Part shown: piece by piece, positions 29,501 to 61,714 of the stretch | How the letters are laid out: each line of letters starts with the position of its first letter | How positions within the stretch are numbered: position 1 is the first letter of the stretch | From: Eledone cirrhosa | Taxonomy: Eukaryota | Length of the DNA stretch: 64,000 nt | Direction: 5' to 3' | Assembly (NCBI GenBank): GCA_964016885.1 | Contig: OZ024764.1 | Location: forward strand, 5,084,001 to 5,148,000 | Notes under the pieces: generated by a model | Seen by the model: the letters and a program-made list of their open reading frames with translations, nothing else | Told to the model about the DNA's origin: nothing | The model's database searches: none | Translations under genes and position numbers: made by a program

Positions 29501-30705
29501 TTTTTCCCTCAAAATGAAGGGCAGACTGTATGATGCAGGTATACAAACAACAATGTTGCACAGCAGCGAGACCTGGGCACTGTGTGTAGAAGATCTGTAA
29601 AGATTGGAAAGAAATGAAGCCTCCATGCTTCAATGGATGTGCCATAGTAATATATGCAAATGGCAAAACATAAATGTACTGCGAGAGAAATTAGGCATAA
29701 GAGGGGTTAGATGCAGTGTGCAGGAGAGGGATTGTTTTGGTATAGACATGTGATGTGTATGAAGGGTGACAGCTGTATAAAAAGGTGCCGAACAAACAAA
29801 GTTGACAGAAACCGTGGAGTGGGCAGGTCTAGGAAGACATGGGATGAGGTAAGGAAAGCTGACTTTGCACAATTACACCTCGCTAAGGCAATGACACAGG
29901 AGGGTGACCTCTGGCGCTATGCACAATTATAGAGGACCTGCCCTCATAAATCCACGAGCTGAGGCATATATCTAGTATGTAACACCTTCCCCACCATCAT
30001 CCCTCCCAAACACCTTCACCCCTATAACTACATCCACAATCCACCAGACATTTTCCCTACCAACACCCCACACAAGTTCCCAAACCTCACCATAAAGTGG
30101 TCCTGCTGCAGCCATGACAAATGTGTCCAGTCCACACTGTACAGTGGTCTTGTAGGTGTCCTGCCAAAAATCAATATTGGGCCTTAAAACCTTGAGTCCC
30201 TTTTGTTCTGTGTATGAACATAAATAATTGTTTCTACTTTTGGCACAAGGCCAGCAATTATCCAGTGCATTACTGGTACTTTATTTTATCGACCCCGTAA
30301 GGATGAAAGGCAAAGTTAACCTTGGCGGGATTTGAACTCAGATCATACAGGGAGGTAACTATGCTTCAAAGCATGGCGTCCGACTCTCTACCGATACTGC
30401 CAATCCACCGCCTGAACATAAATAAATAATTGTTTCTATTTTAGGCACAAGGCCAGCAATTACCCAGTACATGACTGGTACTTTATTTTATCGACCCCGT
30501 AAGGATGAAAGGCAAAGTTAACCTCGGCGGGATTTGAACTCAGATCATAAAGGGACGTAACTCTATGCTTCAAAGCATGGTGTCCGACTCTCTACCGATA
30601 CTGCCAATCCACCACCCTGAACATAAATAAATAATGTAATATATATATATATGTATGTGTGTGTGTATCTATTTATATATTTAACTATATTTTTTGTAAT
30701 CACAG

Positions 30706-30747
30706 GACTGTTCCACTGCAGGGTTCCGCTAGAGGAAACAGTGACGA
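30706..30747 (+). CDS. 42-nt symmetric micro-exon, class A (TVPLQGSARGNSD)
   Basis: CAG/GTAAGT borders; 2 substitutions versus 7232-7273. Confidence 0.65.
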
Positions 30748-31068
30748 GTAAGTTTTAGTTTTACACACTATCTAACCATTATTCTATCTGTTCCTTCCCG
30801 TCTCTCTCTCTCTCTTTATATATATATATTTATATATACTAAGGTGTATTATTGGTTGTGTAAAACGGTCCAATAAATTTTTGTTAGCAATATTAAGTCC
30901 TCCACGCTTTTGTATATCTCCAATTCCATTCAAGGGAACAGCTAGATGATGTAAAACGGAGTATTTCTATCAAAATGAAAATCCGAAGGCAAGGTAAAAT
31001 TTCCAATCATTTTAATCACATCGTGATTAAAATGATTGGAAATCTTACCTTCCTTTGGATTTTCATTT

Positions 31069-31102
<34 letters not shown>

Positions 31103-31741
31103 CTGTCTCTTATAAACCACGTTGGCTATTATGACACTCTCTCCAACATAGAGAGCTATGTTGGCGATTATGACTCTCTCTCTCCCTCTCTATGTTGGCT
31201 ATTATGACTCTCTCTCTCTCTATGTTGGCTATTATGACTCTATCTCTCTATGTTGGCTATAATGACTCTCTCTCTCTCTATGTTGGCTATTATGTCTCTC
31301 TCTGTTCAAGCTTTATGAAGTTAGTTGAACATCTTCAAAGTCCTCCCATATTCGCCTTGTCTAATATGCGTTCTTGTACCTGATTATTTCCCCCAAATCT
31401 CCTGGGATGTTATAAACCATGATGGCTACCTATCTCACAAGTTCTCTCCTGCCGACCCCCTCACACCACCATAGTCTATTCGACCAATCAAACCTCAGCA
31501 ACATGTCCCCCACCCATTAAAAACCCCAACAAACTCTGCCATTACTACTACTTCTACTTTTCTTCTAGCCCTTACCAGCCCTTTATTTTATTGACCCCGT
31601 AAGGATGAAAGGCAAAGTTAACCTCGGCGGGATTTGAACTCAGATCGGAAAGGGACGTAACTAAATAAATAATGTAATATATATATATGTATTTGTGTGT
31701 GTATCTATTTATATATTTAACTATATTTTTTGTAATCACAG

Positions 31742-31783
31742 GACTGATACAAAGGAGAGTACCGCTCTAGAAAAGAATGACAA
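31742..31783 (+). CDS. 42-nt symmetric micro-exon, class A (TDTKESTALEKND)
   Basis: CAG/GTAAGT borders, 42 nt, only phase 2 open. Confidence 0.65.
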
Positions 31784-31847
31784 GTAAGTTTTAGTTTTAC
31801 ATACTATCTAACCATTATTCTATCTGTTCCTTCCCGTCTCTCTCTCT

Positions 31848-31901
<54 letters not shown>

Positions 31902-32728
31902 AGGTGTATTATTGGTTGTGTAAAACGGTCCAATAAATTTTTGTTAGCTTTTGTATATCTCCAATTCCATTCAAGGGAACAGCTAGATGATGTAAAACGG
32001 AGTATTTGTATCAAAATGAAAATCCAAAGGCAAGGTAAAATTTCCAATCATTTTAATCTCGCCGTGATTAAAATGATTGCAAATCTTACCTTGCCTTTGG
32101 ATTTTCATTTTGATATATATATATATATGTATATATATGACTCTGTCTCTTATAAACCACGTTGGCTATTATGACACTCTCTCCAACATAGAGAGCTATG
32201 TTGGCTATTATGTCTCTCTCTCTCTCTATCTATGTTGGCTAATATGACTCTCTCTCTCTCTCTCTATGTTGGCTATTATGACTCTATCTCTCTCTATGTT
32301 GGCTATTATGTCTCTCTCTCTCTATCTATGTTGGCTATTATGACTCTCTCTCTCTCTATGTTGGCTATTATGTCTCTCTCTCTCTATCTATGTTGGCTAT
32401 TATGTCTCTCTCTGTTCAAGGTTTATGAAGTTAGTTGAACATCTTCAAAGTCCTCCCATATTCGCCTTGTCTAATATGCGTTCTTGTACCTGATTATTTC
32501 CCCCAAATCTCCTGGGATGTTATAAGCCATGATGGCTACCTATCTCAAAATTTCTCTCCTGCCCACCCCCTCATACCACCATAGTCTATTCGACCAATCA
32601 AACCTCAGAAACATGTCCCCACCCATTACCAACCCCAACAAACTCTGCCATTACTACTACTTCTACTTTTCTTCTAGCCCTTACCAGCCCCAACAAACCC
32701 TGACATTATTACTACTATTGTCCTTCTA

Positions 32729-33983
32729 GCCATGGGCTGAGGATAAATGGGGCTACCCCAAATTAATAAATGAATATGAATCCGCGAGTTACCAAGCACC
32801 CATGCAAAGCTTTAATTCAGAGACAGGAAGCATACACACCCCACTGCAAAAATTCACCCTTTCCCACGAGTGGTGGCAAATGCCCAAAACTCCGAGTTGG
32901 AACCATCAATGTAAGCACAATGAAAGGAAGAGCAGGAGAAATTGTAGAGATGCTAGAGCGAAAGAAAATTGATGTATGCTGTGTGCAAGAGACTAGATGG
33001 AGAGCAGAGTCCGCTGGAGTCCTTGCAGGCAGAAGTCAGTGCTACCAATTTGTCTGGGTAGCAAATGACAACAGGATGGGAGGTGTAGCTATCCTATTAG
33101 CTGACAAATGGGTAGATAAGGTAATCTCAGTGAACAGGGTGAATGCAAGAATAATGAAACTTGGACTAGTCCTGAATAAAACAATTGCCACAATAATATC
33201 AGCTTACGCACCCCAATTGGGGTTGCCAGCTGACTATAGCGGGGAATTTAGTTTAGAGGTCGGTGTCCACCAGGGCTCTGTTCTTAGCCCACTCCTGTTC
33301 GTTAAAGTATTGCAAGTAATAATGGAGGTGATTATGACCGGATGCCCATGGGAACTCCTATATGCGGATCATCTCACACTTATAGCCGAATCTATGGTGG
33401 AACTATACTTGCTCAGTATGTAGGAAAGGAGTAGGCTGGCTGCAAAAGGTTTTCCCCTCAAAATGAAAAGCAGACTGTATGATGTGGGTATACGAATAGC
33501 AATGTTACATAGTAGTGAAACCTGGGCGCCGTCTGTGGAAGACTTGCATAGATTAGAAAGAAACGAAGCCTGCATGCTCCGATGGATGTGTAATAGTAAT
33601 ATACGCAAACGGCAAAGCATAAATGAATTGAGAGAGTGACTGAGCATAAGAGGAATGAAATGCTGTGTGCAGGAGAGGATGTTGCATTGGACATGTGATG
33701 CGTATGAAGGATGACAGCTGTATAAAAAGGTGTAGAGCAGTAGAAGTCGATGGAAGCCGTGGAGTGGGGAGACCCAAGAAGAGCTGGGATGAGGTGATAA
33801 AAGCCGGACTCACTGTAAATGAGGTTGGTGTTAGGAAGGGCATCCAGCTGTAGGAATCAAGCCAGAATCAGTTCCTGTATGAGCAAGACAAGGTCAGCTG
33901 AACAGACACTGCCCACAACAGGACAACCCGTCTAACCCATGCTTGCGTGGAAGAATGGACGTAAAACAGTGATGAAGATGATA
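32729..33983 (+). mobile_element. internally deleted RTE LINE, copy 4
   Basis: ORF 32770-33423. Confidence 0.9.
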
Positions 33984-35761
33984 TATCATATATGCTAGTG
34001 TACTATTTGACATTTGGAGCCTAAAAATATCTCTCCAAAACCAGGGGTCGACTTGTCTGCTGAATATAGTATGTTACCTTTACCACTGAGGGGTAAACAG
34101 TGAAACTGCCTGCCTAACACTTGTTGTACACCACTTACCATAACTCTAACAACCCACCACATTTATTTCTACTGAATCTCATATTTGTTAAGTTTAACGT
34201 AGAGATTATAGTAATATCAATGTCTTGCTGTAGCTTATAGGGTAGGTTACCATACGGTAGGGTACTGTAGGGTAGGTTACCATAGGGCAGGTTACTGTAG
34301 GGTAGGATACTGTCTGGTAGGTTACCATAGGGTAGGTTACTGTAGGGTAGGTTACTATAGGGTAGGTTACTGTAGGGTAGGTTACTGTAGGGTAGGTTAC
34401 TATAGGGTAGGTTACTGTATGGTAGATTACTCTAGGCTAGGTTACCATAGGGTAGGTTACTGTAGTGTAGGTTACCATAGGGTAGGTTACCACAGAGTAG
34501 GTGACCATAGGGTATGTTATTATAGGGTAGGTAACTGTAGGTTAGGTTACTGTAGGGTAGGTTACCTTATGGTAAGTTACTATAGGGTAGGTTACCATAG
34601 TGTAGGTTACCTTATGGTAAGTTACTATAGGGTAGGTTACCATAGGGTAGGTTACCTTAGTGTAGGTAAGAATAGGGTAGGTTACCATAGGTTAGGTTAC
34701 CATAGGTTAGGTTACTGTAGGGTAGGTTACCATAAGGTAGGTTACCATAGGGTAGGTTACTGTAGGGTAGGTTACCATAGGGTAGGTTACTGTAGGTAGG
34801 TTACCGTAGGTTAGGTTACTGTAGGGTAGGTTAACATAGGGTATGTTAGCATAGGGTTGGTTACCATAGGTTAAGTTCATATAGGTTGTTACCATATTGT
34901 AGGTTACTGTAGGGTAGGTTGCTATAGGGTAGGTTATCGTAGAGTAGGTTACCATAAGGTAGGTTACCGTAGGGTAGGTTACTATAGGGTAGGGTATCAT
35001 AGGATAGGTTACCATAGAGTAGGTTACCTTAGGGTAGTTTACTATAAGATAGGTTACCATAGTGTAGCTTACCATAGGGTAGGTTGTTACCATAGGCAAG
35101 GTTACTATAGGGTGGGTTACCATAGGGTAGTTTATGATATGGTTGGTTACCATAGTGTAGGTTACTATAACATAGGTTACCATAGTGTAGGATACCTTAG
35201 ATTAGGTTACCACAGGATAGGTTACTGTAGGTTAGGTTACCATATGGTAGGTTACCATAGGTTAGGTTAGCAATGGGTAGGTTACTATAGGTTGTTACCA
35301 TAAGGTAGGTTACTGTATGGTGGGTTACCATAGGGTAGGGTACCATAAAGTAGGTTATTATAGTGTAGGTTACCTTAGGATAGGTAACCATAGGGTAGGT
35401 TACTATGGGGTAAGTTACCATAGGGTAGGTTCCCATAGGGTAGGTTAACATAAGCTAGGTTACCTCAGGGTAGGTTACCATACCATAAAGTAGGTTACCA
35501 TAGGTTTGTTAAGGTTAGGCTAGGCTGGTTTACTCGGTGAGTTAAAACTCACTTGTGACTGTAGTGTTTTAGAAGTGTCTCAATCTTTCATGCACCACTA
35601 AATTTTTTAACTATTTCCCCTGAAACTGCCTTATTTTTGGGGGTCATCTTATCAATCGAATAGCGTCCTAAATCTAAATTATACTTCAGAATTTTAGGGG
35701 CCGACTTATGTACCGGATAGACTTGTACACCGGCATATATGGTATATATATATATATGCAT

Positions 35762-35903
35762 GGAGGCACATGGCTTAGTGGTTAGAGCATTGGTCATGCA
35801 ATCGAAAGGTTGTGAGTTCAATTCTCAGACCGGGTGATGTGTTGGTTCCTTGAGCAAGACACTTTATTTCACATTGCTCCAGTTTACTCAGCTGTAGAAA
35901 TGA
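35762..35903 (+). mobile_element. second tRNA-derived SINE with CORE-like domain (copy 57593-57734)
   Basis: TGGCTTAGTGGTTAGAGC box A, GAGTTCAATTCT box B, then CCTTGAGCAAGACACTTT resembling the CORE motif. Confidence 0.7.
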
Positions 35904-37579
35904 GATGATAGGGACTGGGGTCCCTATCATTCCACTGCAAAGTGGTCGTGGAGGTGCCACGGCAAAAAAAGCACCCAGCACTCACTGTAAATGAGGTTGG
36001 TGACAGGAAGGGAATACAGCTGTAGAAATCAAGCCAGAATCAGTTCCCGTCCCGCCCTTGCAAGCAGGGAAAAGTGGACGTAAAATGAAATGATGAAAGA
36101 GAGATAGAGAGAAAGAGAGGGAGTGAGAGAGATACGTTAAAACAATAACAGAAGGTCTGACTGGAGAATTTACTTTAGAATTCCTTCACGGAAATGTCTT
36201 ATTTATCTGTAACACAAACTTCAAAAAACAAGACAACCACTTAATAATCGATAGATCAAGTGAGCCCTCCAGCTAGATAGATTTCCTTGTTACCAGAAGA
36301 TAGAGTGACTGTTATAAACACAAAGTCCTTCCCTAGTGAAGAATGCACCTCCCAACATACCTTAGAATACAACCTGGAAGAAAAGAGTATAGATCAAAAT
36401 CAAAAGGTCTTAAAGTCAATTTGGTAAAGACTAAAGTTCTAGTAAGTAGAAAGGAAAACTGGGCCCAGATCTCTTCAGGTAAACTGTCCTGCTCAGTGTG
36501 CAGAAAAGGAGTAGGTAGAAATTCCATCCTATGTCCCATATAGAAATGATGGGTACACAAAAGATGTTGTGGGATCTCAGGAAGGCTAACAAAGAACGTA
36601 GCTTCTACATGTGGCCAGTGAACAGGGGCAGGAAATATCAAGAGCTCTCGAGTTACAATCTCCTTCAAATGCCCAAATGTCTCTGCAGAGGTGGTAGATA
36701 GTTTCTGTTACTTAGGTGACTAAATCAGCAGTGGAGGAGGGTGGTCCAAAAACTCAGTAACAAGAGTGAGATTAGATTGGAGAAAGTGCAGGGATCTACT
36801 ACTACTGCTAACTACAAAACATTTTTCCATCAAAATGAAGGGCCGACTGTATGATGCAGGTATACAAACAACAATGTTGCACAGCAGCGAGACCTGGGCA
36901 CTGTGTGTAGAAGATCTGTAAAGATTGGAAAGAAATGAAGCCTCCATGCTTCAATGGATGTGCCATAGTAATATATGCAAATGGCAAAACATAGGTTACC
37001 ATTGGGTAGGTTACTGTAGGGTAGGGTACCATAGGGTGGGTTACCATAGCGTAGATTACTGAATGGTAGGTTACATTTCGTTAGGTTACTGTAGGGTCGG
37101 TTACCATAGGGTAGGTTACCATAGGGTGGGTTACCATAGGGTAGGTTACTGTAGGGTAGGTTACCATAGGGTAGTTATGTAGGGTAGGTTACCATAGTGT
37201 AGGTTACTGTAGGGTAGGTTACCATAGAGTAGGATACTGTAGGGTAGGTTACCATAGGTTAGGTCACTGTAGGGTAGGTTACCATAGGGTAGGTTATTAT
37301 AGGGTAGGTTACCATAGGTTAGGTTACTATAGGGTTGGTTGCCATAGGGTATGTTACCATAGGGTAGGTTACTATAAGGTAGGTTACCATACCATAGGTT
37401 AGGTTACCATATGTTTGTTAAGGTTAGGCTAGGCTGGTTTACTCGGTGAGTTAAAACTCACTTGCGACTGTAGTGTTTTAGAAGAAGTGTCTTAATCTTT
37501 AGTGCGCCACTAAATTTTTTAACTATTTCCCCTGAAACTGCCTTATTTTTTGGGTGTCGTCTTATGAATCGAATAGTGT

Positions 37580-38524
37580 CGTATAGGACTATCTGGCATG
37601 TTTTCTATGGCTGGATGCCCTTCCTAACACCAACCACGTTTACAGTGTGGGGACTGGGAGGTTTTTACCATGTTAACTACACGGCCAATTTACAGCGTGG
37701 ACTGTGTGTTTTATTGTCATGACACCTACACAACCTCATTTATTTAGGACTGGATGTTGTGTGACCAACATAATTTTACAGAGATGGGGGTGGGAGTAGT
37801 GGGGTGGGGGCGTATATTTGGTTAAGAGGTGCCTACTGACTGTAGGTTTCGCTTTGTACTTAGGCAAGGGTGGTCTTCTGTATTACTGCGTAGCGCCAAA
37901 GATCTTGGTTCAGTGACATTGTCTTGGAGAGGTGTAAGTGTGTGAGATCGGAATTTATCAATTCGTCCCAGGGTTTTCTGGGTCTGCCTACTCCGTGGCT
38001 ACCATCTATTTTGATCGCCCTGCACTTTTTTATACAGCTGTCGTCTTTCATGCGCATCACGTGACCATACCAACGTAGTCTTCTCTCGAGTACACAACAT
38101 CTGATCCCTCTTATTCCTAATTTCTCACTTAGTTCATTTATGCTTTGCCGTTCACGTATATTACTATTACACATCCAGCGGAGCATGCAAACTTCATTCC
38201 TCTCCAGTCTGCGTATATCCTCTGCACACAATGCCCAAGTCTCACTGCCATGTAACATTGTTGTTCGTATGCAGGCATCATACAGCCTGCCTTTCATTTT
38301 TAGAGAGAACCCTTTAGCGGCCAATCGTACAATGAAAAGAGCGTCTGTGATACTTTTACCTGACACAAACCCAAACTGCATTTCATCTAGATCAATTCTC
38401 TCTCTGATTAGTTGCGCTATTACTTTTTCTGTGACCCTCATGAACTGGTCAATTAATTTAATGCCTCTATAGTTTCCCCTATCTAGGGCATCTCCTTTAC
38501 CCTTGTAGCAGTTAATGATGATGA
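37580..38524 (-). mobile_element. RTE LINE fragment with in-frame internal deletion (copy 59411-60355)
   Basis: ORF 37860-38573 joins ...DALFIVR directly to LAAKGFSL..., a deleted version of 13868-15712. Confidence 0.88.
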
Positions 38525-38651
38525 TATATATATAAAAGAAATAGGATTTCGCTTCAAGCATATCTTTATACAATATGTATAAATATTTTGTATCTCCAAA
38601 GAAATACGGTTTTAGGAAGCCTTAGCTCTGCAAACCCTGGGGGGCTAACGT

Positions 38652-38816
38652 CCTCTGGTGATGTCCAGCAGAAGCAAGGGGGACAACCGTCTATGCATTT
38701 CAGGCTTAACTGGCCATCGTCAGGACAGTCCCTCCCACTGCTTGCGACTGCTGGCCAGTTAAGCATGAAATGCATAGACGGTTGTCCCCCTTGCTTCTGC
38801 TGGACATCACCAGAGG
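38652..38816. repeat. 165-bp inverted repeat (65-bp arms, 35-nt loop) upstream of class B exons
   Basis: CCTCTGGTGATGTCCAGCAGAAG...AACTGGCCA / TGGCCAGTT...CTTCTGCTGGACATCACCAGAGG with one mismatch; copies at 15857, 41432, 44171, 60483, 63261. Confidence 0.92.
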
Positions 38817-38934
38817 CCTTGAAACCTTAAGTCCCTTTTGTTCTGTGTATGAACAGAAATAAATAATGTAATATATATATGTATGTATGTGTGTGTATCT
38901 ATTTATATATTTAACTATATTTTTCTCATTACAG

Positions 38935-38964
38935 GAACACCACTAATTTCTTCGAAAAATGTAT
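38935..38964 (+). CDS. 30-nt symmetric micro-exon, class B (NTTNFFEKC)
   Basis: tttaac...tttttctcattacAG | GAACACCACTAATTTCTTCGAAAAATGTAT | GTAAGT; a competing GTATGT donor lies 4 nt upstream. Confidence 0.6.
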
Positions 38965-39550
38965 GTAAGTGTTACCTTAACATACTGTCTAACCATTGTT
39001 TAATCTGCTCCTCCCTCTACCTCTCCCTTTATACACACACACACATATATACCCCTATATATATATGTATACACACACACACACAAATATATACACATAT
39101 ATACATATATATATACACACATATATATATAATCACATATATATATACATATATACAAGCGAGACACGGCCTGCTGACCAATCTCGCCTTAAGTGGGACA
39201 AAACCGTCCAACCCATGCTAGCATGGAAGATGGACTTTAAATGATGATGATATATACACACTGACACATATATATATACATATATATATACACATATATA
39301 TACGCATATATTTATATATATATATGAGTTCAAGTCCGCCGAGGTTAACTTTGCCTTTCATCTTTACGAGGTCGATAAAATAAAGTACCAGTGGTGTACT
39401 GGGGTAATCGCTGGCCTTGTGCCAAAAGTAGAAACTATAATTATATATATATAACCAAAGATTAATATAGTTCGTTGATTGCTCAACGAATACAGTTGTA
39501 CAATAGATTAGAAGAACTCAACAGTGAAAGTTTTCCTGGACTTTTTAATA

Positions 39551-39815
39551 TTAACAAATGAAAAATATTCTCATAATCAAAATATATACTTTATTATATA
39601 CATTTCAAAGGTATATGACATACCTCTACGGTCTTGATTCTTCAATTCCAGTATTGCAGTCACTGCCAATACTGGAATTGAAGAATCAAGACCGTAGCGC
39701 TATGTCATAATCATATATTTTGTCTGATGAGGACGTACTGAAAAAACAACAATATATATAATATAGTATATATTTTGATTATGCGAATATTTTTCATTTG
39801 TTAACATTTTGAATA

Positions 39816-39820
<5 letters not shown>
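39551..39820. repeat. nested fold-back element downstream of class B exons
   Basis: Inner arms TATGACATA..CTACGGTCTTGATTCTTCAATTCCAGTATTG / CAATACTGGAATTGAAGAATCAAGACCGTAG..TATGTCATA; outer arms TTAACAAATGAAAAATATTC.. / ..GAATATTTTTCATTTGTTAA. Copies at 42331 and 61382; half copies at 16941 and 45064. Confidence 0.85.
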
Positions 39821-39885
<65 letters not shown>

Positions 39886-39951
39886 AGGTAAAATTAATAA
39901 TGAAAGAGTTGCAAGCCTTTAAAACATATCTTTATAAAGCTCTTACATATG

Positions 39952-40027
<76 letters not shown>

Positions 40028-41712
40028 TCATTATCATTTTATGTCCGCTTTTCCCTGCTTGCAAGGGTTGGGCTCTCACCACCACTGGCCATGTTTTTCG
40101 TGGTCTTCCTTTTACTGGGATTTTTTAGCACCTCTTTACCCAGCAGTCATCCTCGATGCGCATCACTTGTCCATACCATCTCAGTCTTCTCTCCTGCACA
40201 CCACAACTCATCCCCAGTTTCTCTCTCAACTCATCTATGGTCTTGTCGTTCACGCACATTGACACACACACACACACACACATATATATATTAATTCTAT
40301 TGACTGATTAATAGCTCTTGTTAATTTTAAAACCATTCTGTTGAGAGCTTAATTCGTTCTGTGATATTTTGCAATTTTGCAATAACACACATACTGAATT
40401 CATCCGCCAAAACTAAGGGCTGTCCCCCCCCCCCCCCTGTGAAGCCCCACGTGGGTTTTGATAACGGTCAGTCCTTGGCTTGGCACTGAACTAAAAGCCT
40501 GTTGAGAAAGTGACTTCCTTGTTCGATCATCATACCAAAAGCTTAACATTATTTGTCTAAGTAGACAGTACTTGATTTAGGAGTTGCAGAAACCCAATAC
40601 TGGATATTACCAACCTTCCAGGGGTCCGGGTATAATTTTCCATCATATTTTATTTGTTTTACTCGAATTACTTGGTCGTGTCTATGGCTGTGCGGATAAT
40701 TGTTTAACCATCGTCTCAGTGTGTTTGGCCTTTTAACTTATGTTGTTGCTCTAGTTCACTAGCTTCTATGGAGCGCCTGCCACACATCTCGGAAGTTGTT
40801 TTTCGTTAATTTCCAATAGCAGAAATGCAATTCTCGCTAATTTATATATATATATATATATATATACACGTATAAGGGATAACAAAATATCGTTATAGGT
40901 AATCCAGGTAGAAGTTGTGAATACTCTGTATTGTGGTTAGTCTTAGTCTACGGCGTTGTTTGACTCAACAAGAGGTTTCCGTAGGTGGCAAGTATTTGAG
41001 TTCTCTTGAATTTCTATGTAAGTTTATCTTGGAGTAATAATATTGAAAGCGTGAAGAATAACATGGTCAACAGTACAAAAGAAGGTTTTTATTTACAGTA
41101 TTAACAATTGTTTCACTGATTAAGTTGTCTAAAAATCGCTGAAAACTTAAAGCTGTGCCACTCAATCTACTATATATATTGGAAGTGGTCGGACGTTGTA
41201 TATTTAAGTAAATAAGTAGGTGTAGTCGGATAAACGTCGAAACGGCTTGGTAGAATGCAGCGAAAATTTACACAGTTATGCAGAATTGTAGCAGTTAATG
41301 ATGATATATATGTAAAAGAAATAGGATTTCGCTTCAAGCATATCTTTATACAATATGTATAAATATTTTATATCTCCAAAGAAATACGGTTTTAGGAAGC
41401 CTTAGCTCTGCAAACCCTGGGGGGCTAACGTCCTCTGGTGATGTCCAGCAGAAGCAAGGGGGACAACCGTCTATGCATTTCAGGCTTAACTGACCATCGT
41501 CTGGACAGTCCCTCCCACTGCTTGCGACTGCTGGCCAGTTAAGCATGAAATGCATAGACGGTTGTCCCCCTTGCTTCTGCTGGACATCACCAGAGGCCTT
41601 GAAACCCTAAGTCCCTTTTGTTCTGTGTATGAACAGAAATAAATAATGTAATATATATATATGTATGTGTGTGTATCTATTTATATATTTAACTATATTT
41701 TTCTCATTACAG

Positions 41713-41742
41713 GAACACCACTAATTTCTCCAAAACAGTTAC
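41713..41742 (+). CDS. 30-nt symmetric micro-exon, class B (NTTNFSKTV)
   Basis: cattacAG | GAACACCACTAATTTCTCCAAAACAGTTAC | GTAAGT. Confidence 0.65.
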
Positions 41743-42595
41743 GTAAGTGTTACCTTAACATACTGTCTAACCATTGTTTAATCTGCTCCTCCCTCTACCT
41801 CTCCCTTTATACACACACACACATATATACCCCTATATATATATGTATACACACACACACACAAATATATACACATATATACATATATATATACACACAT
41901 ATATATATAATCACATATATATATACATATATACAAGCGAGACACGGCCTGCTGACCAATCTCGCCTTAAGTGGGACAAAACCGTCCAACCCATGCTAGC
42001 ATGGAAGATGGACTTTAAATGATGATGATATATACACACTGACACATATATATATACATATATATATATACACATATATATACGCATATATTTATATATA
42101 TATATGAGTTCAAGTCCGCCGAGGTTAACTTTGCCTTTCATCTTTACGAGGTCGATAAAATAAAGTACCAGTGGTGTACTGGGGTAATCGCTGGCCTTGT
42201 GCCAAAAGTAGAAACTATAATTATATATATATAACCAAAGATTAATATAGTTCGTTGATTACTCAACGAATACAGTTGTACAATAGATTAGAAGAACTCA
42301 ACAGTGAAAGTTTTCCTGGACTTTTTAATATTAACAAATGAAAAATATTCTCATAATCAAAATATATACTTTATTATATACATTTCAAAGGTATATGACA
42401 TACCTCTACGGTCTTGATTCTTCAATTCCAGTATTGCAGTCACTGCCAATACTGGAATTGAAGAATCAAGACCGTAGCGCTATGTCATAATCATATATTT
42501 TGTCTGATGAGGACGTACTGAAAAAACAACAATATATATAATATAGTATATATTTTGATTATGCGAATATTTTTCATTTGTTAACATTTTGAATA

Positions 42596-42641
<46 letters not shown>

Positions 42642-42707
42642 AGGTAAAATGAATAATGAAAGAGTTGCAAGCCTTTAAAACATATCTTTATAAAGCTCTT
42701 ACATATG

Positions 42708-42763
<56 letters not shown>

Positions 42764-44451
42764 TCATTATCATTTTATGTCCGCTTCTCCCTGCTTGCAA
42801 GGGTTGGGCTCTCACCACCACTGGCCATGTTTTTCGTGGTCTTCCTTTTACTGGGATTTTTTAGCACCTCTTTACCCAGCAGTCATCCTCGATGCGCATC
42901 ACTTGTCCATACCATCTCAGTCTTCTCTCCTGCACACCACAACTCATCCCCAGTTTCTCTCTCAACTCATCTATGGTCTTGTCGTTCACGCACATTGACA
43001 CACACACACACACACATATATATATATTAATTCTATTGACTGATTAATAGCTCTTGTTAATTTTAAAACCATTCTGTTGAGAGCTTAATTCGTTCTGTGA
43101 TATTTTGCAATTTTGCAATAACACACATACTGAATTCATCCGCCAAAACTAAGGGCTGCCCCCCCCCCCCCCCCTGTGAAGCCCCACGTGGGTTTTGATA
43201 ACGGTCAGTCCTTGGCTTGGCACTGAACTAAAAGCCTGTTGAGAAAGTGACTTCCTTGTTCGATCATCATACCAAAAGCTTAACATTATTTGTCTAAGTA
43301 GACAGTACTTGATTTAGGAGTTGCAGAAACCCAATACTGGATATTACCAACCTTCCAGGGGTCCGGGTATAATTTTCCATCATATTTTATTTGTTTGACC
43401 CGAATTACTTGGTCGTGTCTATGGCTGTGTGGATAATTGTTTAACCATCGTCTCAGTGTGTTTGGCCTTTTAACTTATGTTGTTGCTCTAGTTCACTAGC
43501 TTCTATGGAGCGCTTGCCACACATCTCGGAAGTTGTTTTTCGTTAATTTCCAATAGCAGAAATGCAATTCTCGCTAATTTATATATATATATATATATAT
43601 ATATACACGTATAAGGGATAACAAAATATCGTTATAGGTAATCCAGGTAGAAGTTGTGAATACTCTGTATTGTGGTTAGTCTTAGTCTACGGCGTTGATT
43701 GACTCAACAAGAGGTTTCCATAGGTGGCAAGTATTTGAGTTCTCTTGAATTTCTATGCAAGTTTATCTTGGAGTAATAATATTGAAAGCGTGAAGAATAA
43801 CATGGTCAACAGTACAAAAGAAGGTTTTTATTTACAGTATTAACAATTGTTTCACTGATTAAGTTGTCTAAAAATCGCTGAAAACTTAAAGCTGTGCCAC
43901 TCAATCTACTATATATATTGGAAGTGGTCGGACGTTGTATATTTAAGTAAATAAGTAGGTGTAGTCGGATAAACGTCGAAACGGCTTGGTAGAATGCAGC
44001 GAAAATTTACACAGTTATGCAGAATTGTAGCAGTTAATGATGATATATATGTAAAAGAAATAGGATTTCGCTTCAAGCATATCTTTATACAATATGTATA
44101 AATATTTTGTATCTCCAAAGAAATACGGTTTTAGGAAGCCTTAGCTCTGCAAACCCTGGGGGGCAAACGTCCTCTGGTGATGTCCAGCAGAAGCAAGGGG
44201 GACAACCGTCTATGCATTTCAGGCTTAACTGGCCATCGTCTGGACAGTCCCTCCCACTGCTTGCGACTGCTGGCCAGTTAAGCGTGAAATGCATAGACGG
44301 TTGTCCCCCTTGCTTCTGCTGGACATCACCAGAGGCCTTGAAACCCTAAGTCCCTTTTGCTCTGTGTATGAACAGAAATAAATAATGTAATATATATATA
44401 TGTATGTGTGTGTATCTATTTATATATTTAACTATTTTTTTCTCATTACAG

Positions 44452-44487
44452 CACCAATCACACACTTTCCAAGTACGAGAATATTAT
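44452..44487 (+). CDS. 36-nt symmetric micro-exon, class B (TNHTLSKYENI)
   Basis: cattacAG | CACCAATCACACACTTTCCAAGTACGAGAATATTAT | GTAAGT; same flanks as the 30-nt copies, 6 nt longer. Confidence 0.65.
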
Positions 44488-46127
44488 GTAAGTGTTACCT
44501 TAACAAACTGTCTAACCATTGTTTAATCTGCTCCTTCCTCTACCTCTCCCTTTAATACACACACACACATATATACCCCTATATATATATGTATACACAC
44601 ACACACACAAATATATACACATATATACATATATATATACACACATATATATACATATATACAAGCGAGACACGGCCTGCTGACTAATCTCGCCTTAAGT
44701 GGGACAAAACCGTCCAACCCATGCTAGCATGGAAGATGGACTTTAAATGATGATGATATATATACACTGACACATATATATACATATATACAAATATATA
44801 TACGCATATATCTATATATATATATATGAGTTCAAGTCCGCCGAGGTTAACTTTGCCTTTCATCTTTACGAGGTCGATAAAATAAAGTACCAGTGGTGCA
44901 CTGGGGTAATCGCTGGCCTTGTGCCAAAAGTAGAAACTATATTTATATATATATAACTAAAGATTAATATGGTTCGTTGATTACTCAACGAATACAGTTT
45001 TACAATAGATTAGAAGCACCCAACAGTGAAATTTTCCTGGAGTTTTTAATATTATTCAAAATATTAACAAATGAAAAATATTCTCATAATCAAAATATAT
45101 ACTTTATTATATATATTTCAAAGGTATATGACATACCTCTACGGTCTTGATTATTCAATTCCACTATTGGCAGTGACTATATATTTATAGGCAAAATGAA
45201 TAATGAAAGAGTTGCAAGCCGTTAAAACATATCTTTATAAAGCTCTTACATATGTTATATATATATATATCATCATCATCAGCAGCGAGACCTGGGCACT
45301 GTGTGTAGAAGATCTGTAAAGATTGGAAAGAAATGAGCCTCCATGCTTCAATGGATGTGCCATAGTAATATATGCAAATGGCAAAACATAAATGTACTGT
45401 GAGAGGATTTAGGCATAAGAGGGATTAGATGCAGTGTGCAGGAGTGGGATTGTTTTGGTATAGACATGTGATGTGTATGAAGGGTGACAGCTGTATAAAA
45501 AGGTGCCAAACGCACAAAGTTGACAGAGGCCGTGGAGTGGGCAGGTCTAGGAAGACTTGGGATGAGGTAAGGAAAGCTGATTTTGCACAATTACACCTAG
45601 CTAAGGCAATGACACAGGATGGTGACCTCTGGCGCTATGCACAATTATAGAGGACTACATCCACAATCCACCAGACATTTTCCCTACCAACACCCCACAC
45701 AAGTTCCCAAACCTCACCATAAAGTGGTCCCGCTGCAGCCATGACAAATATGTCCAGTCCACACTGTACAGTGGTATTGTAGGTGTCCTGCCAAAAATCA
45801 ATATTGGGCCTTAAAACCTTGAGTCCCTTTTGTTCTGTGTATGAACATAAATAATTGTTTCTACTTTTGGCACAAGGCCAGCAATTATCCAGTGCATTAC
45901 TGGTACTTTAATTTATCGACCCCGTAAGGATGAAAGGCAAAGTTAACCTTGGCGGAATTTGAACTCAGATCATACAGGGAGGTAACTTTGCTTCAAAGCA
46001 TGGCGTCCGACCCTCTACCGATACTGCCAATCCACCGCCTGAACATAAATAAATAATGTAATATATATATATATGTATGTGTGTGTGTATCTATTTATAT
46101 ATTTAACTATATTTTTTGTAATCACAG

Positions 46128-46169
46128 GTCTGATTCACTGCCGAGGTCCACTATAGGAAACAGTGACGA
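46128..46169 (+). CDS. 42-nt symmetric micro-exon, class A (SDSLPRSTIGNSD)
   Basis: aatcacAG | GTCTGATTCACTGCCGAGGTCCACTATAGGAAACAGTGACGA | GTAAGT; phases 0 and 1 contain stops. Confidence 0.65.
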
Positions 46170-47016
46170 GTAAGTTTTAGTTTTACACACTATCTAACCA
46201 TTATTCTATCTGTTCCTTCCCGTCTCTCTCTCTCTTTATATATACTAAGGTGTATTATTGGTTGTGTAAAACGGTCCAATAAATTTTTGTTAGCAATATT
46301 AAGTTCTCCACGCTTTTGTATATCTCCAATTCCATTCAAGGGAACAGCTAGATGATGTAACAAAATCCGAAGGCAAGGTAAAATTTCCAATCATTTTAAT
46401 CATGTCGTGATTAAAATGATTGGAAATCTTACCTTCCCTTCGGATTTTCATTTTGATATATATATATATATATATATAAATATGACTCTGTCTCTTATAA
46501 ACCACGTTGGCTATTATGACACTCTCTCCAACATAGAGAGCTATGTTGGCTAATATGACTCTCTCTGTATGTTGACTATAATGACTCTCTCTCTATGTTG
46601 GCTATTATGACTCTCTCTCTCTCTATGTTGGCTATTATGACTCTCTCTCTCTCTCTATGTTGGCTATAATGACTCTCTCTCTCTCTATTATGTCTCTCTC
46701 TGTTCAAGCTTTATGAAGTTAGATGAACATCTTCAAAGTCCTCCCATATTCGCCTTGTCTAATATGCGTTCTTGTACCTGATTATTTCCCCCAAATCTCC
46801 TGGGATGTTATAAACCATGATGGCTACCTATCTCACAATTTCTCTCCTGCCCACCCCCTCACACCACCATAGTCTATTCGACCAATCAAACCTCAGAAAC
46901 ATGTCCCCACCCATTACCAACCCCAACAAACTCTGCCATTACTACTACTTCTACTTTTCTTCTAGCCCTTACCAGCCCCAACAAACCCTGACATTATTAC
47001 TACTATTGTCCTTCTA

Positions 47017-48444
47017 GCCATGGGCTGAGGATAAATGGGGCTACCCCAAATTAATAAATGAATATGAATCCGCGAGTTACCAAGCACCCATGCAAAGCTT
47101 TAATTCAGAGACAGGAAGCATACACACCCCACTGCAAAAATTCACCCTTTCCCACGAATGGTGGCAAATGCCCAAAACTCCGAGTTGGAACCATCAATGT
47201 AAGCACAATGAAAGGAAGAGCAGGAGAAATTGTAGAGATGCTAGAGCGAAAGAAAATTGATGTATGCTGTGTGCAAGAGACTAGATGGAGAGCAGGGTCC
47301 GCTGGAGTCCTTGCAGGCAGAAGTCAGTGCTACCAATTTGTCTGGGTAGCAAATGACAACAGGATGGGAGGTGTAGCTATCCTATTAGCTGACAAATGGG
47401 TAGATAAGGTAATCTCAGTAAACAGGGTGAATGCAAGAATAATGAAACTTGGACTAGTCCTGAATAAAACAATTGCCACAATAATATCAGCTTACGCACC
47501 CCAATTGGGGTTGCCAGCTGACTATAGCGGGGAATTTAGTTTAGAGGTCGGTGTCCACCAGGGCTCTGTTCTTAGCCCACTCCTGTTCGTTGAAGTATTG
47601 CAAGCAATAACGGAGGTGATTATGACCGGTGCCCATGGGAACTCCTATATGCGGATCATCTCACACTTATAGCCGAATCTATGGTGGAACTATACTTGCT
47701 CAGTATGTAGAAAAGGAGTAGGCTGGCTGCAAAAGGCTTTCCCCTCAAAATGAAAAGCAGACTGTATGATGTGGGTATACGAATAGCAATGTTACATAGT
47801 AGTGAAACCTGGGCGCCGTCTGTGGAAGACTTGCATAGATTAGAAAGAAATGAAGCCTGCATGCTCCGATGGATGTGTAATAGTAATATACGCGAACGGC
47901 AAAGCATAAATGAATTGAGAGAGTGACTGAGCATAAGAGGAATGAAATGCTGTGTGCAGGAGAGGAGGTTGCATTGGACATGTGATGCGTATGAAGGATG
48001 ACAGCTGTATAAAAAGGTGTAGAGCAGTAGAAGTCGATGGAAGCCGTAGAGTGGGGAGACCCAAGAAGAGCTGGGATGAGGTGATAAAAGCCGACCTTAC
48101 CCAGTTGCACCTCTCAAAGGCGATGACACAGGACCGTCACCTCTGGCATCAAGCAGTAATACAGAAGACCTGACTCCCCAGGGCTACAAGCGGAAGCTGA
48201 AGCGTATGCTCCCACCCTCTCCGACTGTACAGTGGACGTATAGGCGCCACAGACAAAAAGCACCCAGGACTCACTGTAAATGAGGTTGGTGTTAGGAAGG
48301 GCATCCAGCTGTAGGAATCAAGCCAGAATCAGTTCCTGTATGAGCAAGACAAGGTCAGCTGAACAGACACTGCCCACAACAGGACAACCCGTCTAACCCA
48401 TGCTAGCGTGGAAGAATGGACGTAAAACAGTGATGAAGATGATA
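47017..48444 (+). mobile_element. internally deleted RTE LINE, copy 5
   Basis: ORF 47058-47672. Confidence 0.9.
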
Positions 48445-51400
48445 TATCATATATGCCAGTGTACAAGTTGACATTTGGAGCCTAAAAATATCTCTCCAAA
48501 ACCAGGGGTCGACTTGTCTGCTGAATATAGTATGTTACCTTTACCACTGAGGGGTAAACAGTGAAACTGCCTGCCTAACACTTGTTGTACACCACTTACC
48601 ATAACTCTAGCAACCCACCACATTTATTTCTACTGAATCTCATATTTGTTAAGTTTAACGTAGAGATTATAGTAATATCAATGTCTTGCTGTAGCTTATA
48701 GGGTAGGTTACTGTTGGGTAGGTTACTGTAGCATAGGTTACCATAGGGTAGGATAGTGTCTGGTAGGTTACCATAGGGTAGGTTACGATAGGGCAGGATA
48801 CTGTAGGGTAAGTTACTGGAGGGTAGGTTACCATAGGGTAGGTTACCGTAGTGTAGGTTACCATTGGGTAGGTTATTATAGGGTAGGTTACCACAGGGTA
48901 GGTGACCATAGAATAGGTTACTGTAGGGTATTTTACCATAGGGTATGTTACCATAGGGTAGGTTACCTTATGGTAGGTTACCTTAAGGTAGGTTACCATA
49001 GGGTAAGTTACCATAGGGTAGGTTACCTTAGGGTAGGTGACCATAGTGTAGGCTACCATAGGTTAGGTTCTGTATGGTAGGTTAGGTTACTATAGGGTAG
49101 GTTACCATAGGGTAGGTTACGATAGGGTTAGTTACCATAGGGTAGGTTACCATAGCGTAGGTTACTATTGGGTAGGTTACCATAGGGTAGGTTACTGTAG
49201 GTTAGGTTACGTAGGGTAGGTTACCATAGGGTAGGTTGCCATAGAGTAGGTTATTATAGGGTAGGTTACCATAAGGTAGATTACCTCAGGGTATGTTACC
49301 ATATGGTAGGTTACCATAGGGTAGGTTACTGTAGGGTAGTTTACCATAGTGTAGGATACCTTAAATTAGGTTACCACAGGAAAAGTTACCATATGGTAGG
49401 TTACTGTAGGTTAGGTTACCATAGGGTAGGTTATCATAGGTTAGGTTACCAAAGGGTAGGTTACTATAGGTTGTTACCATTGGGTAGGTTACTGTAGGGT
49501 AACATAGGTTACGATAGTGTAGGTTAATATAACATAGGTCACCATAGTGTAGGTTACCTTAGATTAGGTTACCACAGGATAGGTTACCATATGGTAGGTT
49601 ACTGTAGGTTAGGTCACCATAGGGTAGGTTACTATAGGGTAGGCTACTATAGGTTGTTACCATAGGGTAGGTTACCATAGAGTAGGTTACAATATGGTTG
49701 GTTACCATAGTGTAGGTTACTATAACATTGGTTACCACAGTGTAGGTTACCTTAATTTAGGTTACCATAGGTTAGGTTACCGTATCGTAGGTTACTGTAG
49801 GTTAGGTTACAATAGGGTAGGTTACTATAGGGTAGGCTACCAATGATAGGTTATGATGGGTTAGGTTCCATAGGGTAGGTTACCACAGTATATGTTACCA
49901 TATGGTAGGTTAGGTTACCATAGGGTAGGTCACCATAGTGTAGGTTACTTTAGATTAGGTTACCATAGGGTAGGTTACCACAGGATAAGTTACCATATGG
50001 TAGGTTACTATAACATAGGTTACCAAAGTGTAGGTTTCTATAGGTTGTTACCATAGGGTAGGTTACTGTAGGGTAGGTTACTGTAAGGTAGGTTACCATA
50101 GGGTAGGATACTGTAGGGTAGGTTACCAGAGGGTAGGTTATTATAGTATAGGTTACCGTAGGGTAGGTTTCCATGAAGTAGGTGACCATAGGGTAGGTTA
50201 CTATAAGTTAGGTTACCATAGGGTAGGTTTCCATGAAGTAGGTTACCACAGGGTAGGTTAACATAAATTAGGTTACCTTAGGGTAGGTTACCATAAGTTA
50301 GGTTACCATACGGTAGGTTACCATAGGTTTGTTAAGGTTAGGCTAGGCTGGTCTACTCGGTGAGTTAAAACTCACTTGTGACTGTAGTGTTTTAGAAGAA
50401 GTGTCTTAATCTTTCGTGCACCACTAAATTTTTTAACTATTTCCCCTGAAACTGCCTTATTTTGGGGAGGTTATCTTATCAATCGAATAGCGTCCTAAAT
50501 CTAAATTACACCTCAGAATTTTAGGGGCCACGCTATGTACCGGATAGACTTGTACACCGGCATATATATATATGCAAAGAGAGCGAGAGAAACAGCGGGA
50601 GTGAGAGAGATACATTAAAACAATAACAGAGGTCTGACTGGAGAATTTACTTTAGAATTTTAAGAGAAAAGAGGAAGGTTTCAGACTTCTGGAATTCCTT
50701 CACGAAAATGTCCTATTTATCTGTAACACAAACTTCAAAAAATGAGACAACCACTTAATAACATATAGATCATGTGAGCCCACCAGCTAGATAGATTTCC
50801 TTGTTACCATAAGACAGAGTGACTGTTATAAACACAAAGTCCCTCCCTAGTGAAGAATGCACCTCCCAACATACCTTAGGAGACAAACTGGAAGAAAAGA
50901 TTATAGATCAAAATCAAAAGGTCTTAAAGTCAATTTGGTAAAGACTAAAGTTCTAGTAAGTAGAAAGGAAAACAGGGCCCAGATCTCTTCAGGTAAACTG
51001 TCCTGCTCAGTGTGCAGAAAAGGAGTAGGTAGAAATTCCATCCTATGTCCCATATAGAAATGATGGGTACACAAAAGATGTCGTGGGATCTCAGGGAGGC
51101 TAACAAAGAACGTAGCTTCTACATGTGGCCAATGAACAGGAGATGGAAATATCAAGAGCTCTCGGGTTACAATCTCCTTCAAATACCCGAAAGTCTCTGT
51201 AGAGGTGGTAGATAGTTTCTGTTACCTAGGTGACTAAATCAGCAGTGGAGTAGGGTGGTCCCAAAACTCAGTAACAAGAGTGAGATTAGATTGGAGAAAG
51301 TGCAGGGATCTACTACTACTGCTAACAACAAAAAGTTTTTCCCTCAAAATGAAGGGCAGACTGTATGATGCAGGTATACAAACAACAATGTTGCACAGCA

Positions 51401-52540
51401 GCGAGACCTGGGCACTGTGTGTAGAAGATCTGTAAAGATTGGAAAGAAATGAAGCCTCCATGCTTCAATGGATGTGCCATAGTAATATATGCAAATGGCA
51501 AAACATAAATGTACTGCGAGAGAAATTAGGCATAAGAGGGGTTAGATGCAGTGTGCAGGAGAGGGATTGTTTTGGTATAGACATGTGATGTGTATGAAGG
51601 GTGACAGCTGTATAAAAAGGTGCCGAACAAACAAAGTTGACAGAAACCGTGGAGTGGGCAGGTCTAGGAAGACATGGGATGAGGTAAGGAAAGCTGACTT
51701 TGCACAATTACACCTCGCTAAGGCAATGACACAGGAGGGTGACCTCTGGCGCTATGCACAATTATAGAGGACCTGCCCTCATAAATCCACGAGCTGAGGC
51801 ATATATCTAGTATGTAACACCTTCCCCACCATCATCCCTCCCAAACACCTTCACCCCTATAACTACATCCACAATCCACCAGACATTTTCCCTACCAACA
51901 CCCCACACAAGTTCCCAAACCTCACCATAAAGTGGTCCTGCTGCAGCCATGACAAATGTGTCCAGTCCACACTGTACAGTGGTCTTGTAGGTGTCCTGCC
52001 AAAAATCAATATTGGGCCTTAAAACCTTGAGTCCCTTTTGTTCTGTGTATGAACATAAATAATTGTTTCTACTTTTGGCACAAGGCCAGCAATTATCCAG
52101 TGCATTACTGGTACTTTATTTTATCGACCCCGTAAGGATGAAAGGCAAAGTTAACCTTGGCGGGATTTGAACTCAGATCATACAGGGAGGTAACTATGCT
52201 TCAAAGCATGGCGTCCGACTCTCTACCGATACTGCCAATCCACCGCCTGAACATAAATAAATAATTGTTTCTATTTTAGGCACAAGGCCAGCAATTACCC
52301 AGTACATGACTGGTACTTTATTTTATCGACCCCGTAAGGATGAAAGGCAAAGTTAACCTCGGCGGGATTTGAACTCAGATCATAAAGGGACGTAACTCTA
52401 TGCTTCAAAGCATGGTGTCCGACTCTCTACCGATACTGCCAATCCACCACCCTGAACATAAATAAATAATGTAATATATATATATATGTATGTGTGTGTG
52501 TATCTATTTATATATTTAACTATATTTTTTGTAATCACAG

Positions 52541-52582
52541 GACTGTTCCACTGCAGGGTTCCGCTAGAGGAAACAGTGACGA
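52541..52582 (+). CDS. 42-nt symmetric micro-exon, class A (TVPLQGSARGNSD)
   Basis: Identical to 30706-30747 with canonical borders. Confidence 0.65.
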
Positions 52583-52903
52583 GTAAGTTTTAGTTTTACA
52601 CACTATCTAACCATTATTCTATCTGTTCCTTCCCGTCTCTCTCTCTCTCTTTATATATATATATTTATATATACTAAGGTGTATTATTGGTTGTGTAAAA
52701 CGGTCCAATAAATTTTTGTTAGCAATATTAAGTCCTCCACGCTTTTGTATATCTCCAATTCCATTCAAGGGAACAGCTAGATGATGTAAAACGGAGTATT
52801 TCTATCAAAATGAAAATCCGAAGGCAAGGTAAAATTTCCAATCATTTTAATCACATCGTGATTAAAATGATTGGAAATCTTACCTTCCTTTGGATTTTCA
52901 TTT

Positions 52904-52949
<46 letters not shown>

Positions 52950-53588: not shown

Positions 53589-53630
53589 GACTGATACAGA
53601 GGAGAGTACCGCTCTAGAAAAGAATGACAA
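53589..53630 (+). CDS. 42-nt symmetric micro-exon, class A (TDTEESTALEKND)
   Basis: Canonical borders; one substitution (K->E) versus its counterpart 31742-31783. Confidence 0.65.
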
Positions 53631-53694
53631 GTAAGTTTTAGTTTTACATACTATCTAACCATTATTCTATCTGTTCCTTCCCGTCTCTCTCTCT

Positions 53695-53732
<38 letters not shown>

Positions 53733-60765: not shown

Positions 60766-60795
60766 GAACACCACTAATTTCTTCGAAAAATGTAT
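60766..60795 (+). CDS. 30-nt symmetric micro-exon, class B (NTTNFFEKC)
   Basis: Identical to 38935-38964. Confidence 0.6.

Positions 60796-61646: not shown

Positions 61647-61714
<68 letters not shown>

Follow-up and report, generated by a model that had tools for sequence, protein, structure and literature searches.

Introduction

Exons that outpace their introns in divergence are familiar from venom and gamete-recognition genes, which encode exposed or secreted proteins and occur in gene families. Other described systems share the use of many small or duplicated exons. The micro-exon genes (MEGs) of Schistosoma contain many tiny symmetrical exons that can be skipped without loss of frame and give a pool of variants through alternative splicing, and in the accessible part of the source dN/dS is just above 1 in three MEGs, with VAL-6 given as an ordinary gene that has a MEG-like segment (PMC4350168). 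The alternative exons of Dscam measure 130-160 nt, encode extracellular sequence and are mutually exclusive, and the passages available from that work report neither gene conversion nor positive selection among the paralogues (PMC3236188). Here we describe an array of duplicated micro-exons in the genome of Eledone cirrhosa. The stretch that was analysed (contig OZ024764.1 of assembly GCA_964016885.1, positions 5,084,001 to 5,148,000 of the forward strand, 64,000 nucleotides; hereafter the window) lies over its entire length, 1..64000, on the plus strand inside this array (G000:C25:4,871,418-5,399,532), which we assign from sequence to a gene, P1, for a predicted membrane protein of the M13 (neprilysin-like) peptidase family.

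M13 peptidases have a type II membrane layout and the motifs VNAFY and ENIAD, and they underwent lineage-specific expansions with loss of catalytic residues, as far as the excerpts of the two sources go (PMC2259306, PMC8223033). A protease tripwire or bait region sets off a response once a pathogen protease cuts it. A further point of reference is thus the tripwire of NLRP1 and CARD8, for which a rapidly evolving cytoplasmic N-terminal stretch of short linear motifs is described in the available text (PMC8591160).

Results

Divergence is confined to the exons

The micro-exons of the window fall into two classes, A and B, and six of them form a higher-order unit of 21.8 kb (30706..52540, plus strand, order A,A,B,B,B,A). 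Three copies of this unit exist, the next starting at 52541 and the third lying outside the window; neighbouring copies are 99.8% and 98.6-99.8% alike. The three consecutive class B exons of the unit are all phase 2-2, on the plus strand, and bounded by a CAG acceptor and a GTAAGT donor: a 30-nt exon at 38935..38964 (NTTNFFEKC), a 30-nt exon at 41713..41742 (NTTNFSKTV) and a 36-nt exon at 44452..44487 (TNHTLSKYENI, with a Tyr-x-x-hydrophobic end). Each sits in a cassette of flank, exon and flank, the first of which measures 2.78 kb (38505..41290, plus strand, approximate limits taken from the sequence).

A reading of the window from its letters alone (the sequence-only reading) had proposed that these cassettes are nearly identical outside the exons and that divergence stops at the splice sites. 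This was confirmed by alignment. Between the exons at 38935 and 41713 there are 6 differences in 30 bases, all within the last 13 nt exactly as had been stated, compared with 14 in 1,885 non-microsatellite bases of the flanks, with a maximum of two differences in any 30-nt window (binomial P 8.6e-8 for the exon excess). Their endings FEKC and SKTV had been translated correctly, in the sole frame that is always open, and counted over full codons the pair shows 5 replacement and 0 silent changes. The third exon is indeed largely rewritten and 6 nt longer, its flanks differing from those of the other two cassettes at only 11/580 and 12/590 positions. Across the array the per-position diversity changes abruptly at the splice sites, from 0.016-0.031 in class B flanks to mostly 0.2-0.7 within the exons.

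As a wider control one unit of about 22 kb was aligned to the whole array and scored in windows of 30 nt. Non-exon, non-repeat windows held at most 4 mismatches in 465 of 467 cases (mean 1.3%; the two exceptions lie at one place), and the six exons of the local unit diverged from the array by 12.5-38.9%. Exon divergence thus lies above that of flank windows of equal length and is roughly 25 times that of the surrounding intron DNA.

Extent and reading frame of the array

In 664 kb around the window 103 cassettes were found by their acceptor and 4 more in which a repeat replaces it, about 107 altogether, spanning 528 kb (C25:4,871,418 to 5,399,532). A strict donor pattern is matched by 97 of the 103. 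Of the remainder, one cassette retains an intact donor and carries a flank change, and in five the donor is damaged. The 97 strict-donor exons comprise 51 of class A (42 nt) and 46 of class B (27-36 or 78 nt), and represent 53 distinct sequences of 27-78 nt. The exact donor pattern occurs 51 times in the 3.0-Gb genome, 48 times in the array and 3 times in one paralogue. A third exon class was not seen in 3,418 unmasked spacer bases of one unit, and the window has no Rfam match.

In phase 2 all 53 distinct exons are multiples of three and open, compared with 14/53 and 32/53 that are open in the other phases. Joined in order, the 97 exons give 1,278 codons with zero stops, as modules of 9-26 residues each, and no pairing of exon ends creates a stop codon. 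Random changes would put a stop into 10-27% of the exons. This conservation of the frame is strong indirect evidence that the array exons are coding.

The array precedes an M13 peptidase-like gene

P1 is one of four gene copies (P1-P4), all on C25. A phase-2 exon for a hydrophobic helix starts 13.8 kb past the last micro-exon (C25:5,413,283). Together with 19 further exons this transmembrane exon provides 633 unbroken residues that end at C25:5,629,520; both the transmembrane exon and the last exon (C25:5,629,413-5,629,520, plus strand) lie outside the window. In a Pfam M13 profile search of the genome the last exon of P1 scored above the cut-off (25.2 bits), and when single P1 exons were compared with Peptidase_M13 and M13_N, four of seven matched with E values of 4e-5 to 0.013, each below the curated cut-off. 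The top PDB matches of the exon that carries the zinc motif were endothelin-converting enzyme 1 (ECE-1) and neprilysin. Judged from these features, the array exons belong to a single gene for an M13 peptidase-like membrane protein.

The motifs VNAFY and ENIAD, named as catalytic motifs of M13 peptidases in the accessible part of PMC2259306, are intact in P1, P2 and P3. The HExxH zinc motif reads HKIFH in P1, such that the catalytic Glu is replaced by Lys (G000:C25:5,618,006; L098:6-73; a single base of a single assembly). P1-P3 also lack the C-terminal CxxW, their ends reading LLFW. Active neprilysin follows a four-motif rule that includes HExxH and the C-terminal CxxW, as given in the available portion of PMC8223033; by this rule P1 is neprilysin-like rather than an active neprilysin.

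The predicted layout is of type II, with a single hydrophobic run in the first constant exon and basic residues before it. The array chain reaches a highest 19-residue hydropathy of 0.49 and hence lacks a hydrophobic run. Because of these two features the micro-exons are predicted to encode a cytoplasmic tail of up to 1,278 residues. We rejected the alternative of a mucin-like extracellular chain, since there are 36 glycosylation sequons against 28 ± 4 after shuffling and the array lies ahead of the membrane helix. Protein searches with single exons (queries of 42-59 residues, which provide weak evidence) returned no relatives, so that no orthologue from another species was available for comparison; two repetitive proteins matched in one such search were judged spurious.

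A TATA-bearing element common to P1, P2 and P3 (C25:4,857,76x, within L053:3750-5100; G000:C25:4,857,750-4,859,100), followed by a short closed reading frame and a donor, is a candidate first exon. Within the array 24 of 27 B-to-A exon junctions would spell ATG. In P1 and P2 a 26-bp satellite, about 1.1 kb long, interrupts the region of the element. For an open stretch at C25:4,861,0xx an Ig-like reading was dropped, as a stop follows and the context is repeat-like.

Four paralogues with different numbers of micro-exons

P2 (7.16-7.32 Mb) is inverted and about 99% alike, and has four micro-exons plus a duplicated pair; P3 has one micro-exon; P4 carries a separate array, in which 7 A and 2 B exons encode different peptides. 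The micro-exon counts over the four paralogues are therefore 1, 4-6, 9 and about 107. The catalytic Glu is kept in P2 and P4 (both HEIFH) and replaced in P3 by Gln (HQIFH) as it is in P1 by Lys; P1 also lacks one conserved Cys. Divergence in the P4 array is 6.6% in exons versus 1.4% in flanks, and P1 and P2 differ at 22/1,902 exon positions versus 8/2,489 in flanks. Since all paralogues share the same flanks, we infer that their micro-exons go back to a single ancestral one, which multiplied in P1 and in P4 independently.

A solitary copy of the family's last exon lies on the minus strand at L142:8256-8339 (G000:C25:24,978,256-24,978,339), and no zinc-motif or transmembrane exon belonging to it was found among the genome matches. 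Several canonical M13 genes are located elsewhere, on C24 (7.50-7.83 Mb, three clustered), C2 and C3.

One splice junction is seen in the gene family

In sequencing run X4 a 150-nt contig of depth 116 covers the transmembrane exon exactly, without intron cover; this stretch is preceded by 11 bases from the end of a class B exon and followed by the first 26 bases of exon 2. Contigs of runs X1-X3 cover the introns around this exon. X4 was treated as RNA on the exon-exact contig alone; the run carries no RNA record and represents one sample of one study. It also contains 74% of the words of an intron-containing stretch, for which retained introns are the sole explanation that we offer. Within the gene family one micro-exon type is spliced to the transmembrane exon, and this micro-exon junction, continuing into exon 2, is the sole one seen.

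The 11-base exon end of the contig is found in 7 of the 46 class B copies, which argues against a free choice of the last exon in the X4 sample, with the reservation that contigs drop rare forms. The 5' end of the contig coincides with the first P1/P2 difference in the last micro-exons, and its 3' end with the point at which the P3 and P4 transmembrane exons would run together. These end points and the 31-letter words suggest that several paralogues are expressed.

A variant of the transmembrane exon that is absent from the assembly occurs in two DNA runs (L047:5283-5395). It has five substitutions, all of which we read as replacements, and two codon deletions, and is probably an allele. The assembly letter at L047 position 5342 is matched by no public contig examined.

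Amino-acid selection on class A and transmembrane exons

Silent and replacement changes were counted along minimum-spanning trees of the distinct exons, using equal-length pairs only. Over 17 tree edges class A exons accumulated 3.5 silent and 39.5 replacement changes. Their silent divergence (pS 0.021) equals that of the flanks (0.021) and their replacement divergence is much higher (pN 0.079; pN/pS 3.75; P 0.009); one class A pair differs by 7 replacements despite identical 160-nt flanks. The single-copy transmembrane exon behaves similarly: between P1 and P3 it shows 23 replacement and 2 silent changes together with two in-frame gaps, the flank differing at 6/131 positions. For all 20 constant exons the same comparison gave pS 0.037, flank 0.038 and pN 0.062 (P 0.034). 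With silent changes near the intron rate and replacements about 4-fold or more above it, class A and the transmembrane exon are, as far as such counts can tell, under amino-acid selection. The diversifying selection suggested by the sequence-only reading is supported here.

Class B exons and the history of the array

Class B exons differ from this pattern. Over 22 edges (11 joins that could not be aligned without gaps were excluded) pS was 0.109, pN 0.103 and flank divergence 0.008, such that silent sites diverge about 13 times as much as the flanks. In 14 class B cassettes the flanks are 0.2-2.9% apart (2.6 kb upstream, 1.1 kb downstream), in contrast to 29% and 1.5 gaps per pair for the exons they surround. 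In the four-gamete test 200 of 990 pairs of sites in class B flanks were incompatible. Recombining flanks around diverged exons fit homogenised introns around retained exon lineages, and the earlier suggestion that intron homogenisation spared the exons is thus supported for class B.

We therefore consider it fairly probable that the array diverges because positive selection alters the tail peptides while unequal crossing-over and gene conversion homogenise the introns. One ancestral micro-exon, still single in P3, would have given rise to classes A and B, followed by separate expansions in P1 and P4. Conversion tracts may stall at a diverged exon, or overwriting it may be selected against, so that class B silent sites would look older than the introns. 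Most exons would be translated at least sometimes, whether constitutively or through skipping, and a fixed basic exon would precede the membrane helix.

Several observations weigh against this explanation. Class B has no excess of replacement over silent changes (pN/pS 0.95; 10 silent and 20 replacement changes in close pairs), so that selection on its peptides rests on frame conservation and on the analogy with class A, and some of the silent changes may be slippage in runs of Thr codons or parts of multi-base events. A simple model of selection plus conversion would predict a halo of raised divergence in the intron DNA beside class B exons; none was found, divergence being lowest within 600 nt upstream. 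The replacement excess was not significant between P1 and P2 (P 0.40) or between P1 and P4 (P 0.11; 12 exons, two of them poorly aligned), and tree-edge counts on exons of 30-42 nt are approximate and non-independent. No in-frame start codon was found for P1. Finally, at one site the X4 contig, like every DNA contig over that site, has the letter of P2, and for this reason it is not assignable to P1; the expression of P1 and the inclusion of the exons of the window stay predicted.

Young tandem duplication with amino-acid selection alone, in which the exons simply ran ahead and no intron homogenisation took place, is an unlikely alternative, though it survives best. The missing halo and the flat flank divergence of about 1% over 2.6 kb would be expected from it, identical exon types mostly cluster on the flank tree, class A fits it fully, and the total class B excess (93 substitutions versus 8.5 expected, 11-fold) agrees with it as well. 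It fails on the silent changes of close class B pairs, of which 10 are seen where about 1.5 are expected (P 4e-6; 7 isolated, P 9e-4), and on the incompatible site pairs of the flanks.

We find it harder still to believe in a process that targets the exons and spares the introns, such as RNA-templated rewriting or local hypermutation. The sharp boundary at the splice sites, the silent excess of class B and the clustering of its changes (30/51 lie within 2 nt of another change) would all suit such a process. So would five 78-nt class B exons (L007:8553, L009:4128, L011:1029, L019:2424, L036:8123) that open with what appears to be a complete 30-nt exon, as if an intron had been lost exactly. However, silent sites of class A and of the constant exons change at the intron rate, and three 57-nt hybrid exons have a weakened donor and carry acceptor sequence inside, which points to joins at the DNA level. 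A-to-G changes are not in excess (10/51 exon changes versus 21/122 flank sites), and A-to-I editing written back into DNA was rejected on this ground. The targeted exon replacement considered in the sequence-only reading thus received no positive support.

We think it very improbable that the exons are unused and the array is repeat DNA, neutral or decaying, or in part an artefact of assembly. The three near-identical 21.8-kb units, the damaged donors of 5 cassettes and the replaced acceptors of 4, the catalytic Glu and conserved Cys lost in P1 and the P1 letter found in no public contig examined would fit, but neutral DNA would not have kept 53/53 exons in frame and stop-free at 25 times the flank divergence, the P1-P2 differences concentrate in exons, unlike errors, the array region has no N gaps, and an artefact might alter the copy number yet not generate 53 different exons.

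Further features of the window and repeats

The remaining micro-exons of the window, all on the plus strand, are mostly of class A: 624..665 (donor GT lost), 7232..7273, 8267..8308, 16139..16180 (divergent, RLDMERDLLYYDY), 21303..21344, 30706..30747, 31742..31783, 46128..46169 (42 nt, SDSLPRSTIGNSD), 52541..52582 and 53589..53630. Class B is represented by 16296..16328, where repeat-derived sequence ending in AG replaces the usual acceptor, and by 60766..60795 and 63542..63571, which are identical to the exons at 38935 and 41713, respectively.

A near-perfect inverted repeat with 65-nt arms, 98% complementary, is located at 38652..38816, roughly 120 nt ahead of the class B acceptor. The hairpin from this 65-bp repeat has a predicted energy of -148 kcal/mol (z -17.8) and is found again at class B cassettes. 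It might favour breakage and conversion, or cause exon skipping by pairing between cassettes. Probably it represents a dispersed repeat, for which there are 1,094 candidates. More hairpins lie in the same spacer near 39,540-39,810.

A 310-bp tandem repeat at 21675-24393 flips its orientation at about 23,343 (5.4 copies, then 3.4 reversed) and thereby forms a large palindrome. Arrays of a 15-bp satellite occupy class A spacers of the window at 3393-5018, 10725-11678, 26850-28492, 34237-35482, 36992-37391, 48698-50327, 56068-57313 and 58823-59222. Further downstream a P1 intron is filled by about 150 kb of a 46-bp satellite (L082-L097; G000:C25:5,458,474-5,617,354); the exon after this intron is the one that precedes the zinc motif. 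Each unit is a copy of the acceptor and first bases of that exon, such that thousands of decoy acceptors result; exact acceptor motifs number 1,919 in P1 and 105, 26 and 41 in P2, P3 and P4. Comparison of P1 with P2 shows 5 changes over 46 nt in the exon downstream of the satellite.

Discussion

If positive selection on the tail peptides acts together with intron homogenisation, the selective agent could be a conflict with intracellular antagonists, e.g. pathogen proteases or effectors. We hold this to be the likeliest of three agents, although we put it somewhat below an even chance. It is favoured because the tail and the membrane helix change fastest and because two of the four paralogues have replaced the catalytic Glu, each by a different residue.

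A less probable agent is a use of the tail as a library of sorting or signalling motifs. The pattern Tyr-x-x-hydrophobic can serve as such a motif. It ends 21 of the 46 class B copies and includes 22 of 33 Tyr residues versus 6.6 in shuffles, an excess that is not independent evidence, since the motifs descend from one ancestral position. Reproductive recognition appears more doubtful again. In class A of P1 and P4 there are Gln-small-residue sites, too few as independent cases for a test; the pattern resembles viral protease sites.

A bolder and rather improbable idea is that a catalytically dead neprilysin acts as a membrane-anchored bait or sensor, whose cytoplasmic tail of up to about 1,300 residues would be a library from which splicing draws on more than 50 different short peptides. 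These peptides, protease baits and Tyr-based motifs, would then be diversified exon by exon in an arms race, with the introns remaining interchangeable. If true, this would be an invertebrate route to variable immune recognition from inside the cell.

Searches for exons that outrun introns usually turn to toxins or surface receptors; here about 100 duplicated micro-exons of one gene show the pattern. For a peptidase-like protein in the course of losing its catalytic residue, the observations point to a conflict that affects the inner tail and the membrane helix. With two exon classes, four paralogues and 20 ordinary exons as built-in controls, the locus should allow positive selection, gene conversion and targeted mutation to be told apart unusually cleanly, at a resolution of 30 bases. 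Such arrays are likely missed by gene annotation pipelines.

Compared with venom, recognition and gamete-interaction loci, to which the sequence-only reading had likened the array, P1 shares the excess of exon over intron divergence. The likeness holds for this pattern and does not extend to the protein: the P1 exons form an intragenic array for a predicted cytoplasmic M13 tail and encode no exposed toxin or binding surface.

With Schistosoma MEGs, as described in the accessible part of the source, P1 has in common very small symmetrical exons (53/53 distinct exons of 27-78 nt, multiples of three and phase 2-2), whose skipping would preserve the frame, and rapid protein evolution, and it resembles the MEG-like segment of VAL-6. 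In contrast, MEG products are secreted or gland-associated at the host interface, and the P1 array encodes a predicted cytoplasmic tail. The coding region of MEGs consists mostly of micro-exons, whereas P1 has a membrane and ectodomain part of 633 residues in ordinary exons, with the array before the helix. Unlike in MEGs, the P1 array is built of tandem duplicates with near-identical flanks over 528 kb, and the divergence lies between duplicates in one genome. Measured against the source as far as available, P1 thus lacks defining features of Schistosoma-type MEGs.

Like Dscam, P1 has dozens of tandemly duplicated internal exons with diverged paralogues. It differs from the Dscam exons of the available passages in exon size (27-78 nt), in the predicted cytoplasmic rather than extracellular location of the encoded peptides and in flanks that are 97-99% alike and recombine, and the sole spliced contig argues against a free choice of the last exon in the P1 family. 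Relative to M13 and inactive neprilysin-like proteins, P1 matches the layout, the motifs and the loss of catalytic residues, and the accessible M13 passages describe no exon array in the tail (PMC2259306, PMC8223033). In the same partial sources the inactive neprilysin-like proteins of Drosophila are mostly predicted to be secreted, whereas P1 keeps a membrane helix behind a long tail. The NLRP1/CARD8 tripwire, judged from the part of the work available, offers a functional analogy only, as P1 has no FIIND, CARD or known signalling output.

In the literature covered, mostly titles and openings of abstracts and outside subscription journals, we found no report of the P1 gene or of a micro-exon array in an M13 tail. 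Among known systems, the P1 array acts most like a MEG segment and shares with Dscam arrays the tandem duplication of exons.

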